The position numbers were made by a program, and so were the translations under genes. This document shows, one piece after another, positions 43,815 to 46,408 of a stretch of 64,000 bases of DNA. Positions within the stretch are counted from its first letter, which is position 1. Each line of letters opens with the position of its first letter. A model generated the notes under the pieces. The model worked only from the letters and a program-made list of their open reading frames with translations, did not search any database and was not told where the DNA came from. The DNA is from an uncultured Acidobacteriota bacterium. Lineage in GTDB: Bacteria; Acidobacteriota; Thermoanaerobaculia; Multivoradales; UBA5704. The stretch is from the NCBI GenBank assembly GCA_963770895.1, contig CAVYRF010000001.1:1887472-1951471 (forward strand), in the 5' to 3' direction.

Positions 43815-45401
43815 GTGAGCGCAGAGCGACCGAAACCCCGCCCCATCACCACCAAGCCGGAGCTCATCGCCGCGCTCAAGGAAGCGTCGGAGATCGAGCA
43901 GCAGCTGATGATCCAGTACCTGTACGCGGCGTTCTCGCTCAAGAAGCAGCCGGATGAGCGGTGCAGCGCGGCGCAGTACGAATTTGTGCGCCGGTGGGGC
44001 TCGACGATCCTGATGGTGGCGCGCTCCGAGATGGAGCACCTGGCGCTGGTCAACGGCCTGCTGACGGCGCTCGGCGAGCCGCCCTGGTTCAGCCGCGAGA
44101 ACATCCCGCGCCAGTCGCCCTACCTGCTGAGCGCCAACATGGCGCCGTTCAAGGCGCCCGGCGGCCAGGTGACGCCGTGCGACATTCCGTTCGTCTTCGA
44201 GCGCTTCAACCTGGAGACCATCGGGCGGTTTGTCTGCGCCGAAAGCCCCAGCTATGAAACGCTGCAACAAAGCGGTCAGCCGATTCCCTGGTGGTGCTTC
44301 GGCACCGCGGAGCGGCCGTGCCAGAGCGCGGCGCCGCGCTCTGGCGCTCCCGCCGGTGCCGGCGCCGCCGGCGGCTATCCGCTCAGCCGCAGCCACCTGG
44401 CAAAGCTGCTGGCTGCCCGCGCCGCCGGCGGCGCCCCTGCTGCGGCCGCCGCGACAGCCGGCGGCGGTGGTACGCCGTCTGCGCACCCAACGGCGGCATC
44501 GCCCGCGCCGCAGGCCTCGGCCGTCGACAGCATCGCGCCCGGCACCATCCAGGAGCTGTACGACGAGATCCAGGCGGCCATCCACCGCCTGCCGGCGGCG
44601 GAGCTGTTCACCGGCGACCCCAGCCAGCAGGTGTTCGTGCCGATCGAATACCAGATCAACATCTTCCCGATCACCGACGTCGCCTCGGCCGACGTGGCGC
44701 TCAAGCTGATCGTCGAAGAGGGCGAAGGGATCGACGCGCCGCCCGACTACCAGAGCCACTTCCGGCGCTTCTCCGACGTGCGCGCCGAAATGGTGGCGCT
44801 GCTCGCCGACGACCCGCGCTTCGAAGCCTCGCTGCCGCTGCCGTTCAACCCGCGCCGCGACGACATCACCAACCCCCTGGCGCGCGACCTGTTCGACCTG
44901 TTCAACTACACCTACACCACGCTGGTGTTTCTGTTGACCTCGCTCTACCGCAACTTCCAGCCCGCCGCCAGCCAGACCGGCTATCCGTACTTCAGCCTGG
45001 CGCTGCAAGAGGCGGCCTTCGGGCCGATGATGACCATGCTGGTGCGCCCGCTGGCGGAGATCATGGCGTATACCAGGAGCGGCGACGGCGACGCCACCAC
45101 CGGTCCCGACTACCACCTGTCGCCGTCCGACCAGCAGCTGCTGGAGCAGCAGGGCGACTCGCTGCAGGACATCAATTTCTTCCTCGATCGCTTCGGCTGG
45201 ATCATCGCCGCGCTCGAAAAGCTGGACCACACGCGCGCCGCCGGAGGCTTCGCCGCGGCGGTGCGCGGTCCGGGCGATCTGCCGCTGGTCGACCGCCAGC
45301 TCCGTTTCGTCTACGAAAGCGCCACGGCGATGCGCAACAATCTGCGCCGCATCTACCAGATCGGCGAGCTGCCGCAGTTCATCGTCGCGCCGTCTACCTG
45401 A
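43815..45401 (+). CDS. Ferritin-like (four-helix-bundle, ExxH) domain protein resembling the C-terminal domain of VioB/StaD/RebD-type heme enzymes
   Basis: EQQLMIQYLYAAFSL…ARSEMEHLALVNGLLTALGEPPWF matches, from memory, the VioB C-terminal ferritin-like motifs (…LQYLYAAYS…, …EEMIHYLVVNNLLMALGEP…). A Gly/Ala-rich insert is present. RBS GGAGGT and a GTG start at 43815 (alternative 43797). Confidence 0.65.
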   Translation: MSAERPKPRPITTKPELIAALKEASEIEQQLMIQYLYAAFSLKKQPDERCSAAQYEFVRRWGSTILMVARSEMEHLALVNGLLTALGEPPWFSRENIPRQSPYLLSANMAPFKAPGGQVTPCDIPFVFERFNLETIGRFVCAESPSYETLQQSGQPIPWWCFGTAERPCQSAAPRSGAPAGAGAAGGYPLSRSHLAKLLAARAAGGAPAAAAATAGGGGTPSAHPTAASPAPQASAVDSIAPGTIQELYDEIQAAIHRLPAAELFTGDPSQQVFVPIEYQINIFPITDVASADVALKLIVEEGEGIDAPPDYQSHFRRFSDVRAEMVALLADDPRFEASLPLPFNPRRDDITNPLARDLFDLFNYTYTTLVFLLTSLYRNFQPAASQTGYPYFSLALQEAAFGPMMTMLVRPLAEIMAYTRSGDGDATTGPDYHLSPSDQQLLEQQGDSLQDINFFLDRFGWIIAALEKLDHTRAAGGFAAAVRGPGDLPLVDRQLRFVYESATAMRNNLRRIYQIGELPQFIVAPST

Positions 45402-45442
45402 GCCGCGCCGGCTGCAGGCAGCGCCACCAGACAGGAGGGGCC

Positions 45443-46408
45443 GTGAAGTTCGCCAAGCTGCTTGAGATCCAATACCAGGGCTTCTTCTTCTGCCGCCTGG
45501 CAACCGACCCCGATCCCACCAACGAGCAGCGCGGCGTCAGCGGCTACACCATGGCGCTGGTGTACGAAGATCCGCTCGACCAGGTCATCCGCACGCAGAT
45601 CGATCAGGATTTCGCGGTCCGCAACCTGCGCGAGCCGGTGCAGCTGCCGGGCGAACCGAACAATCCCAACCGCCCCATGAACCTCACGGTCGGTGTGGAG
45701 GTCGCCGGCGTCAGCTTCGACGGCAAGACCTACCCGCCCGCGGCGCGCGCCCTGGCCGGCGCCAAGCTGTCGCTCAAGGGCAAGACGCCGCCCTTCGACG
45801 GCCCCATCTTCGACAGCCGCAACAACATCGTCGGCTCGGACGACAACATGATGTTCGTCGTCAATCCCTTCGAGCTGGAGATCAAGAGCGACCAGGTCAC
45901 CATCGCAGCCACCGACTATCTCAATCCCGCCGATCCAGAGCAGCAGATCTGGCAGATCCAGGACCCCAGCACCTACAGCCGCCGCCTGCCGACCGCCTTC
46001 AGCGGCAGCTCCACCACCGCCATGGCGGCCATCCGCGTCTTCGACGGCTACGCCTACTTCCGCGACCGCCGCCGCTTCCTCGAGCAGCGCATCGCCGCCC
46101 TGCAAGCCCAGCGCGCCGCCGGCACCAGGAGCGCCGAGCAAGACGCCCAGATCGAAGCCCTGCGCACCCGCGTCTACCAGCTGGAATTCTGGGGCGACCG
46201 GGTGATCAGCAAGCTCGGCTTCCAGCTCACCTACAGCTTCAACGTCAACGGCCCCCAAAGCATCACCGGCGCCGAGCACCTGGGCGGTGAAATCGACTGC
46301 CAGCAGCCCTGGCCCGTCACCTTCTGGTTCGGCAGCTGGGACGGCGACCTCCTCATCGGCTACATGCAAGGCACCCTGGGCATCCCCTTCCAGCCGACCC
46401 TGGGCTAG
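45443..46408 (+). CDS. Hypothetical protein, possibly VioB/StaD N-terminal-domain-like; partner of the ferritin-like protein
   Basis: RBS AGGAGGGG and a GTG start 41 nt after the upstream stop. The N-terminus AKLLEIQYQGFFFCRLATDPDPTNEQRG has the same hydrophobic/Gly/aromatic/DP pattern I recall at the VioB N-terminus. Length 321 aa. Confidence 0.55.
   Translation: MKFAKLLEIQYQGFFFCRLATDPDPTNEQRGVSGYTMALVYEDPLDQVIRTQIDQDFAVRNLREPVQLPGEPNNPNRPMNLTVGVEVAGVSFDGKTYPPAARALAGAKLSLKGKTPPFDGPIFDSRNNIVGSDDNMMFVVNPFELEIKSDQVTIAATDYLNPADPEQQIWQIQDPSTYSRRLPTAFSGSSTTAMAAIRVFDGYAYFRDRRRFLEQRIAALQAQRAAGTRSAEQDAQIEALRTRVYQLEFWGDRVISKLGFQLTYSFNVNGPQSITGAEHLGGEIDCQQPWPVTFWFGSWDGDLLIGYMQGTLGIPFQPTLG

Follow-up and report, generated by a model that had tools for sequence, protein, structure and literature searches.

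Two adjacent genes, gene 1 and gene 2, form an autonomous, horizontally mobile module that probably encodes a cytoplasmic two-subunit metallo-oxidase acting on a small molecule and not on the neighbouring Cys-rich peptide. The pair lies in a 64-kb stretch of DNA (the window, meaning the whole stretch that was analysed), and the features of the region are listed in Table 1. Both genes are genuine; gene 1 is related to the C-terminal ferritin-like half of VioB, StaD and RebD, and gene 2 belongs to a family of its own. An earlier sequence-only reading had described the pair as a split VioB/StaD with its domains in reversed order, divergent from the Cys-rich peptide gene and possibly acting on a peptide.

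Table 1. Features of the gene pair and its surroundings, in positions of the window.
Feature	Position	Strand	Description	Basis
Cys-rich peptide ORF	43474-43686	-	70 aa, 10 Cys, good RBS	
10-nt palindrome ATAGTACTAT	43783..43792		AT-rich patch ~25 nt upstream of gene 1	
Shine-Dalgarno GGAGG of gene 1	43803..43807	+	7 nt ahead of GTG	sequence reading
Gene 1	43815..45401	+	528 aa, GTG start; PF12902 region N-terminal	
Gene 1 stop TGA	45399-45401	+		
Shine-Dalgarno AGGAGG of gene 2	45433..45438	+	4 nt ahead of GTG, within 41-nt gap	sequence reading
Gene 2	45443..46408	+	321 aa, GTG start, 41 nt past gene 1 stop	
264-aa ORF	46600-47394		downstream of pair	

The ferritin-like protein encoded by gene 1

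The start position of gene 1 matches the N-termini of its homologues, and the protein holds the motifs MIQYLYAAFSL and EMEHLALVNGLLTALGEPPW, from which a VioB/StaD/RebD ferritin-like domain had been recognised. Profile searches bore this out for gene 1, where the domain stands in a non-bis-indole context. Pfam PF12902 (Ferritin-like) matched over profile positions 1-219 of 221 with 117 bits (E=1.4e-33; gathering threshold 22.3 bits). Positions 598-737 of the NCBIfam VioB model TIGR04492 (1003 positions) matched residues 9-147 with 63.7 bits (E=7e-18); since the equivalog cut-off of this model is 1250 bits, for a full-length protein of ~1000 aa, the match is at the domain level and does not confer VioB equivalog membership. 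A StaD-like protein encoded at a Nocardiopsis locus with neighbours of indolocarbazole type was aligned with gene 1 by hhalign over its residues 651-1025 at a probability of 99.6%, and a VioB/StaD C-domain alignment matched the gene 1 profile at 99.9% (E=1e-34). Residues ~6-436 of gene 1 are homologous to the VioB/StaD C-terminal half, and at the level of profile comparison the homology of gene 1 extends over all of the ferritin-like C-terminal half of VioB/StaD/RebD. These three are, to our knowledge, the only characterised enzymes with a PF12902 domain, and all are reported haem enzymes.

The candidate metal ligands of gene 1 are E28, E72, H75, E304 and H315 (an E...ExxH...E...H set). Each of them is kept by 41-45 of the 47 gene 1 sequences in the alignment, the remainder being almost all gaps, and the set, common to gene 1 and VioB/StaD/RebD, is also present in the StaD-like protein, two Nostoc PF12902 proteins and one from Methylobacterium. 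Conservation of the cysteines C141 and C161 (plus C50 and C122) is restricted to the orthologues of gene 1, and the conserved cysteines of the family are missing from the StaD-like protein. A four-helix-bundle fold is supported for gene 1, with E...H in the second half-site where the canonical pattern has ExxH. The four-helix core and the Glu/His set on its helices resemble those of the ferritin-like dimetal-carboxylate superfamily (Dps, bacterioferritin, Mn-catalase, rubrerythrin and diiron oxygenases). The E...H second half-site, the large insertions and the C-terminal helical domain are points of difference, and a cage-forming architecture is not expected.

Searches of PDB sequences with the gene 1 and gene 2 family profiles gave chance coiled-coil matches only, and the PDB holds no sequence-detectable relative of the VioB family. 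PDB 3hl1 (CC_0557 from Caulobacter vibrioides), a structural genomics entry of unknown function named 'ferritin like protein', shares 18% identity with gene 1, has 282 aa against 528 aa, and was not detected by the gene 1 profile at E<=1; we know of no partner protein for CC_0557. PADLOC defence models gave zero matches for gene 1, gene 2, the peptide and the downstream 264-aa ORF.

Gene 2 and its pairing with gene 1

The size of gene 2, its spacing from gene 1 and its strong ribosome binding site were as originally described, and its supposed VioB-like N-terminus was not. The NCBIfam VioB model did not match gene 2 at E<=1, and the hhalign probability was 0.7% for the gene 2 profile against a 12-sequence VioB/StaD N-domain alignment and 0.4% against the full-length StaD-like protein. 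Gene 2 is thus unrelated to the VioB N-domain at the profile level. Its family comprises roughly 460-500 protein clusters and has no model in Pfam or NCBIfam; gene 2 defines a new and strongly conserved domain family. The predicted structure is a beta-barrel into which a helical hairpin is inserted (helices 202-226 and 231-255). The best-conserved loops are TDPDPTNE..SGYT (21-36) and NNIVGSDD (127-134), where the model confidence is low; invariant Trp, Arg and Asp residues are present, and Cys17 varies in the wider family. A Foldseek search of gene 2 against the PDB gave no match with E<0.17, and tblastn against plasmids gave no match. The predicted barrel may be likened to the small cofactor-free barrels of the PloI4, AbnU, Tsn15 and Cyc15 Diels-Alderases and of allene oxide cyclase-like (AOC-like), dirigent, YceI and avidin proteins. 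Such barrels bind or steer reactive small molecules.

At each of the 47 distinct related loci with enough upstream sequence, gene 1 directly precedes gene 2 on the same strand, with a 16-nt or 41-nt gap or a 4-nt overlap between the genes. In four representative proteins the two are fused, PF12902 forming the N-terminal part and the gene 2 domain the C-terminal part. As these keep the order gene 1-gene 2 and gene 2 is unrelated to the N-domain at the profile level, the description as a VioB split in reversed order is not supported. Pairwise identities of the two proteins are correlated (r=0.89, 45 loci), with medians of 50% for gene 2 and 37% for gene 1. The pairing is obligate, and both genes diverge in step. 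According to the source labels, hosts of the pair are Thermoanaerobaculia/Acidobacteriota, Longimicrobiaceae, Myxococcales/Deltaproteobacteria, Actinomycetota, Bacteroidota, Chloroflexota, Planctomycetota, Cyanobacteria and Pseudomonadota. No description of the pair was found in the literature on PF12902, VioB-like proteins, and ferritin-like proteins with RiPPs.

The genes flanking the pair vary by lineage and include DUF3857/transglutaminase, MacB/FtsX, TonB receptors, STAND kinases, M19 dipeptidase, VWA proteins and histidine kinases. Histidine kinases (the sole family recurring across phyla) and AAA_16/STAND kinases were considered as functional clues and set aside, since both are too widespread to tell anything. 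At 7 Thermoanaerobaculia loci, small ORFs that had seemed conserved downstream of the pair proved to be off-frame shadows of a ~135-aa gene that is conserved on the other strand. The 264-aa ORF downstream of the pair is unrelated both to the gene beside the peptide on another contig and to the M50-like gene in the same place in a syntenic near-relative (L058).

The divergent Cys-rich peptide and the intergenic spacer

A Cys-rich peptide gene divergent from gene 1 had been noted and is present, separated by a spacer of 128 nt. The ORF was also predicted by the gene caller in an independent sample, where the arrangement with the pair is retained. Its leader resembles double-glycine or class I lanthipeptide leaders (NF038153, E=0.0075), with 16.4 bits falling below the cut-off of 22 bits, and its C-terminus is Cys/Thr-rich and conserved. 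No LanB or LanC domains were found among the window ORFs scanned with Pfam, and no other modifying enzymes for the peptide among the main window ORFs so scanned. Among 5.8 billion proteins the peptide family forms just 5 clusters. The 56 related loci searched (52 from genomes and 4 from other contigs) have no peptide homologue, and peptide and pair occur together only in the window and in L058. A peptide 74% identical (P0393) lies on a 7.8-kb contig with DUF3224 and TIR_2 genes and no PF12902 gene. At the next closest pair (L005, gene 2 86% identical), the position of the peptide is taken by two toxin-antitoxin-like ORFs and a DinB-like ORF, named from reading their sequences. Credible Cys-rich small ORFs were found near the pair at only 2 other loci; they are unrelated to the peptide, and those at one of them (L020) have signal peptides. 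A conserved neighbourhood of the pair with small Cys-rich ORFs was therefore not found, and the idea that the pair modifies the peptide is not supported. We infer that the adjacency in the window is a lineage-specific accident of gene order; since peptide and pair are syntenic in two genomes, a functional link specific to this lineage keeps a small probability.

The spacer had been called palindromic and AT-rich. It has an AT-rich patch with only one 10-nt palindrome, ATAGTACTAT, which lies below the threshold of the repeat finder, and no inverted repeat was reported in the spacer by that program. The palindrome core TAGTACTATCGCGG is kept in L058, where the 6 nt just upstream are absent. The palindrome might serve as a -10 region or as an operator. 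Searches of the spacer for consensus sigma-70 and sigma-54 sites found none, and a sigma-70/terminator scan and Rfam gave nothing in the region. A gene for an FHA-sigma54 activator lies 1 kb upstream, and sigma-54 site counts across the window are below chance.

Possible functions of the pair

In the two-subunit metallo-oxidase that we favour, gene 1 would carry a redox metal centre, either dimetal-carboxylate or haem, as its conserved residues and fold suggest. Gene 2 would stand in for the N-terminal half of VioB and may dock via its hairpin or conserved loops. Its barrel pocket would bind the substrate or a reactive product, by analogy with dirigent, AOC-like and Diels-Alderase proteins, and the substrate may differ between lineages.

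The one genomic context that bears on the substrate is an ebo operon. At one locus (L055) the pair has eboD on one side and eboE on the other and runs in the direction of the operon, and EboA, EboC and EboE each exceed their NCBIfam cut-offs. The placement is the same in Symploca (L050), and the lineage with this context consists of two related cyanobacteria-like genomes whose EboE proteins are 80% identical. No ebo genes were found in the window (64 kb) or within the 8-kb flanks of the other pair loci; a DHQS-like neighbour in Planctomycetota, considered as eboD, is an ordinary aroB scoring above the TIGR01357 cut-off. Because ebo genes are far more widespread than the pair, a place among the core ebo components is ruled out for it. 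Its position between eboD and eboE suggests tailoring of a metabolite that is aromatic or derived from a cyclitol. The ebo operon (eboABCDEF) has been linked to thallusin biosynthesis, a pathway in which no enzyme has been assigned to the step that oxidatively rearranges saccharoquinoline into thallusin (bioRxiv 10.64898/2026.05.21.724671). A more specific proposal, speculative and quite unlikely as it stands, is that the pair is a new two-component VioB-type oxidative enzyme for non-indole aromatics, with the barrel subunit replacing the N-domain. In the eboD/eboE lineage it could perform one of the unassigned ebo/thallusin oxidative steps (hydroxylation of the quinoline core or saccharoquinoline rearrangement). 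In other lineages its substrates would be related aromatics that chelate metals, and this would agree with the TonB-dependent receptors that are co-transcribed with the pair in two lineages.

These TonB-dependent receptors, encoded co-directionally just downstream of the pair in L057 and L042, could also be cited for a role in iron handling or oxidative stress, with gene 1 as a ferritin/Dps-like store or a Mn-catalase- or rubrerythrin-like peroxidase and gene 2 as a structural or targeting partner. The conserved E/ExxH/E/H set agrees with this, the cysteines specific to gene 1 could make a second metal site as in rubrerythrin, and RebD has been reported to show catalase activity. Gene 1 is, however, far nearer to the VioB/StaD catalytic half (99.9%) than to any storage ferritin, its length of 528 aa and large insertions are unlike the subunits of 24-mer or 12-mer cages, and the conserved barrel partner and the ebo operon placement suit metabolism better, so that we consider an iron or stress function unlikely. 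LodB matures LodA and QhpG matures QhpC, and in a comparable arrangement gene 2 would be the substrate, in which gene 1 oxidatively installs a protein-derived cofactor or cross-link. The higher conservation of gene 2 than of gene 1 and the invariant Trp, Arg and Asp residues of gene 2 would suit a client protein. PF12902 genes also adjoin fungal lodA/lodB genes (PMC4417212), and a LodB/QhpG-like flavoprotein, below NCBIfam cut-offs, is encoded upstream at two Planctomycetota loci. Cys17 is not kept in the wider family, though, and the domain fusions suit a permanent complex over a maturase and its client, which makes this reading very unlikely.

A RiPP tailoring enzyme that cross-links or otherwise modifies the 70-aa peptide would account for a peptide gene that is real and precursor-like in its RBS, leader and C-terminus, for a divergent layout kept in the second sample and in L058, and for the lack of other modifying enzymes among the main window ORFs scanned. 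The distribution of the genes largely refutes it, given 0 of 56 related loci with a peptide homologue, 5 clusters for the peptide against roughly 460-500 for gene 2, unrelated Cys-rich ORFs near two other cassettes only, a relative of the peptide on a contig without a PF12902 gene, and other ORFs at the peptide position in L005; we give it a highly improbable standing. A true split VioB/StaD that would dimerise indole-3-pyruvate imine into a bis-indole scaffold, and for which the Trp oxidase would be encoded in another part of the genome, is hardly credible. It would draw on the homology of gene 1 to the VioB/StaD C-half and on an Amino_oxidase-family gene 2.3 kb downstream of the pair at one Planctomycetota locus (L045). 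The N-terminal half of VioB/StaD (~600-640 aa, twice the length of gene 2) is absent from the pair and has no similarity to gene 2 at the profile level, and 63.7 bits stand against the TIGR04492 cut-off of 1250. As the sequence-only reading had stated, no flavin amino-acid oxidase was found among the main window ORFs scanned with Pfam; the window ORFs scanned likewise had no L-Trp oxidase, P450 or VioE-type gene adjacent to the pair, and no Trp oxidase was found in the flanking genes sampled at most other pair loci. Genuine StaD-like genes are fused, at ~1000-1100 aa, and in the one example examined the neighbours of the StaD-like gene of Nocardiopsis encode an FAD oxidoreductase, a P450, an FAD monooxygenase and a glycosyltransferase.

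The C-terminal half of VioB/StaD/RebD is seen to exist as a free-standing subunit, tied to a different conserved partner in many phyla. The claim of a new peptide-modifying enzyme class is removed as unsupported. Gene 2 adds a domain family to those without a Pfam or NCBIfam model, and the ebo operon placement provides one concrete, testable substrate context. The pair is also a smaller, two-piece system for dissecting the ferritin-like half, both for the metal or haem that it uses and for the chemistry that it performs.

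Gene 1 and the C-terminal half of VioB/StaD proteins

Both genes of the pair were recovered at the positions called in the sequence-only reading, and the motifs quoted there are present in gene 1. Gene 1 matched Pfam PF12902 (Ferritin-like) at E=1.4e-33, and its N-terminal 140 residues matched positions 598-737 of the NCBIfam VioB model (63.7 bits, cut-off 1250). A 1079-aa StaD-like gene from a Nocardiopsis plasmid, neighbored by an FAD oxidoreductase, a P450, an FAD monooxygenase, and a glycosyltransferase, was used as the reference; 19 VioB/StaD-like metagenomic loci were retrieved, and the 11 with a long match were aligned with the Nocardiopsis protein. 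The gene 1 family profile aligned to residues 651-1025 of the StaD-like protein (probability 99.6%) and to the VioB/StaD C-domain alignment (probability 99.9%, E=1e-34), so the sequence-only reading had identified the gene 1 motifs correctly.

The predicted model of gene 1 is helical (pLDDT 82). Of the 47 gene 1 sequences in the alignment, 41-45 keep residues E28, E72, H75, E304, and H315, with exceptions that are almost all gaps, and all five residues also occur in the StaD-like protein and in two Nostoc plasmid and one Methylobacterium PF12902 proteins. A metal site common to the whole PF12902 domain family would be expected to show such a pattern, and the five residues are candidate metal ligands. 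Conservation of C141 and C161 (less strictly C50 and C122) is confined to gene 1 orthologs. No solved structure related by sequence was detected for the gene 1 or gene 2 family. Free-standing PF12902 genes elsewhere have other partners, in the arrangements ferritin-like/radical SAM/ferritin-like and sugar-dehydrogenase small subunit/GMC oxidoreductase/ferritin-like (plasmid loci L060 and L061), and the domain seems to have been reused in combination with many different proteins.

Gene 2 and the obligate pairing of the two genes

Gene 2 had no Pfam or NCBIfam match, the full-length VioB model included at E<=1. With the full StaD-like protein, its family profile reached a probability of 0.4%, and with a 12-sequence N-domain alignment, 0.7%; gene 1 against the C-domain, compared in that run, was the positive control. 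Gene 2 as the other half of VioB was rejected on these results. Of the original observation, the two genes, the gene 1 motifs, and the VioB-type domain stand; the VioB-type N-terminus proposed for gene 2 does not.

When 1.84 billion representative proteins were searched exhaustively with the family profile, 458 gene 2 relatives emerged. The best 150 are mostly stand-alone proteins of 260-350 aa; four of them carry PF12902 N-terminally and the gene 2 domain C-terminally, and one further multi-domain relative is fused to a subtilase. The order in these four natural fusions is the gene order found here, and not the reversal of VioB that had been proposed. The AlphaFold model of gene 2 (pLDDT 80.7) is a barrel built of strands from both chain ends with an inserted two-helix hairpin. 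Residues 21-36 and 127-134 have pLDDT below 50 yet are the most conserved motifs of the family, which suggests loops that may gain order on contact with a partner or ligand.

In 47 of 53 distinct related loci examined (49 from genomes and four from other contigs), gene 1 directly precedes gene 2 in the same orientation; in the remaining six, gene 1 is missing or truncated through a contig end or reading-frame breaks. One locus has a tandem double copy. The two genes are separated by 16 or 41 nt or overlap by 4 nt. Across 45 loci, their pairwise identities correlate (r=0.89), with a higher median for gene 2 (50%) than for gene 1 (37%). The pair is an obligate unit. Source genomes are labeled Thermoanaerobaculia, Longimicrobiaceae, Myxococcales/Deltaproteobacteria, Acidimicrobiia/Actinomycetes, Bacteroidota, Chloroflexota, Planctomycetota, Cyanobacteria, Burkholderiaceae, and Gammaproteobacteria.

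Genomic surroundings and the Cys-rich peptide

Features of the window (G+C ~72%; nearest public-genome relatives, Thermoanaerobaculia MAGs of the Acidobacteriota) and of the compared loci are listed in the table.

Coordinates of features in the window and in loci retrieved for comparison
Locus	Feature	Position	Strand	Remark
Window	MFS transporter			Before hutH
Window	hutH	39210-40844
Window	hutH to hutU	39210-52483
Window	FHA-sigma54 activator	41023-42852
Window	Glyoxalase-family protein	42895-43407
Window	Cys-rich ORF, 70 aa	43474-43686	-
Window	Gene 1	43815-45401	+	GTG start, good Shine-Dalgarno
Window	Gene 2	45443-46408	+	GTG start, good Shine-Dalgarno; 41 nt after gene 1
Window	Lower-GC stretch	46400-48300		G+C 0.59 versus ~0.72
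Window	264-aa ORF	46600-47394		Within lower-GC stretch
Window	RsgA, then hutU			After 264-aa ORF
Window	tRNA-Gly(GCC)	52986-53071	-	ARAGORN call
L060 (Nostoc plasmid)	PF12902 genes	5983-10824
L061 (Methylobacterium plasmid)	PF12902 genes	3929-7236
L057	TonB-dependent receptor	8942-10906
L042	TonB-dependent receptor	9045-11477
L019	TonB-dependent receptor	221-2140
L045 (Planctomycetota)	Flavin genes	4458-5852, 11263-12732
L048 (Planctomycetota)	Flavin gene	4688-5980
L055	ebo operon with inserted pair	2-10459
L050 (Symploca)	ebo operon with inserted pair	3-13594
L050 (Symploca)	Extra PF12902 proteins	1909-5613, 9287-12133, 14475-15455

About 10 kb of unrelated genes (FHA-sigma54 activator, glyoxalase, peptide, pair, RsgA, and toxin-antitoxin genes) part hutH from hutU, in a layout identical to that of L058, a syntenic relative. 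The G+C dip downstream of gene 2 looks like a variable insertion spot; its 264-aa ORF has no family match, and an unrelated M50-like gene fills that position in L058. The tRNA call lies within the N-terminal part of a 1596-codon ORF with recognizable histidine-kinase domains at the C-terminus only; one of the two must be in error, the tRNA or the start assigned to the long ORF. The 'palindrome' in the spacer between gene 1 and the peptide is one single 10-nt element, and the spacer has no sigma-54 site.

The peptide ORF has an RBS and matches a leader model for class I lanthipeptides below threshold. Its family conserves a leader (KLTLxRETLxxLD/E...GG/GA), whose hydrophobic/Glu spacing and GA or GG end resemble double-glycine leaders, and a C-terminal CxTCxGTCTTNxC motif within NTCxTCxGTCTTNxC. 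It looks like a genuine precursor-type gene. The family is very rare, with five clusters in 5.8 billion proteins: the window's own copy, the copy in L058 (fully syntenic, gene 1 identity 91%), a copy of 74% identity amid DUF3224 and TIR_2 genes on a 7.8-kb contig that lacks a PF12902 gene, and two copies whose contigs are too short for a judgment. A homolog was absent from all 56 related loci searched, and in L005, the next closest relative of the pair (86% gene 2 identity), two toxin-antitoxin-like ORFs and a DinB-like ORF occupy its position. Peptide and pair are thus distributed independently, their adjacency is limited to one species-level lineage, and the proposal that the pair acts on the peptide is not supported. 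Small ORFs rich in Cys were also looked for up to 3 kb from the pair; credible ones came up at only two other loci, both unrelated. No peptide-modifying enzyme or dedicated transporter was recognizable among the window ORFs scanned. As an orphan with the look of a precursor, the peptide gene merits attention in its own right.

Flanks of the pair vary by lineage and include DUF3857/transglutaminase proteins, MacB/FtsX transporters, TonB-dependent receptors, STAND/AAA_16 kinases, M19 dipeptidase, VWA proteins, and toxin-antitoxin genes. A TonB-dependent receptor lies directly downstream of gene 2 and co-directional in L057 and L042 (Thermoanaerobaculia-type, overlapping the gene 2 stop codon, and Burkholderiaceae) and upstream in a third locus, which may point to a connection with a compound that is imported or acts as a chelator. 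In the Planctomycetota loci L045 and L048, a flavoprotein upstream of the pair matches halogenase, LodB, and QhpG models below threshold, and L045 carries a flavin amine oxidase gene (PF01593) 2.3 kb downstream of the pair.

The exception to the variable flanks is a cyanobacteria-like lineage (L055 and Symploca L050), where the pair lies within the ebo operon. The order in L055 is EboF-like, EboA, TatD/EboB, GST, EboC, EboD, gene 1, gene 2, and EboE, with EboA, EboC, and EboE all above NCBIfam cut-offs; in L050, the pair likewise lies between eboD and eboE. Their EboE proteins are 80% identical, so the insertion is taken as one evolutionary event. Neither the window nor any of the other loci has an ebo gene. 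Three extra PF12902 proteins surround the pair in L050: one of 1234 aa with the domain N-terminal, one of 948 aa with the domain at 590-809 (VioB-like layout, only 42.9 bits on the VioB model), and one of 326 aa. Uncharacterized genes inserted in ebo operons were mentioned earlier without analysis (PMC5133447). A May 2026 preprint assigned the ebo genes to thallusin biosynthesis and stated that no enzyme is known for the oxidative rearrangement of saccharoquinoline to thallusin (bioRxiv 10.64898/2026.05.21.724671).

Interpretation of the pair

The homology of gene 1 to the C-terminal half of VioB/StaD, the obligate pairing, the fusions, and the independence of the pair from the peptide are established. 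The pair is best explained as an autonomous two-subunit enzyme. Gene 1 would be the source of a VioB-type ferritin-like redox center, presumably with a metal center, and gene 2 would place a conserved barrel where VioB has its N-terminal half and may provide the pocket. The two proteins would form a physical complex, probably acting on a small molecule.

A split and reversed VioB acting on the peptide is not supported, since gene 2 is unrelated to the N-domain at profile level, the fusions have the gene order of the pair, and the peptide is independently distributed. A true split VioB, with which the pair would share the ferritin-like half, is very improbable, and there is little likelihood that the pair tailors the precursor-like peptide beside it. 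We also consider it unlikely that the pair serves in iron storage or peroxide detoxification, or that gene 1 matures gene 2.

Within an enzyme domain family already known, the pair is a new, widespread, and uncharacterized version, with a partner domain described by no protein-family library. The ebo placement is one concrete lead to a pathway with an open oxidative step.
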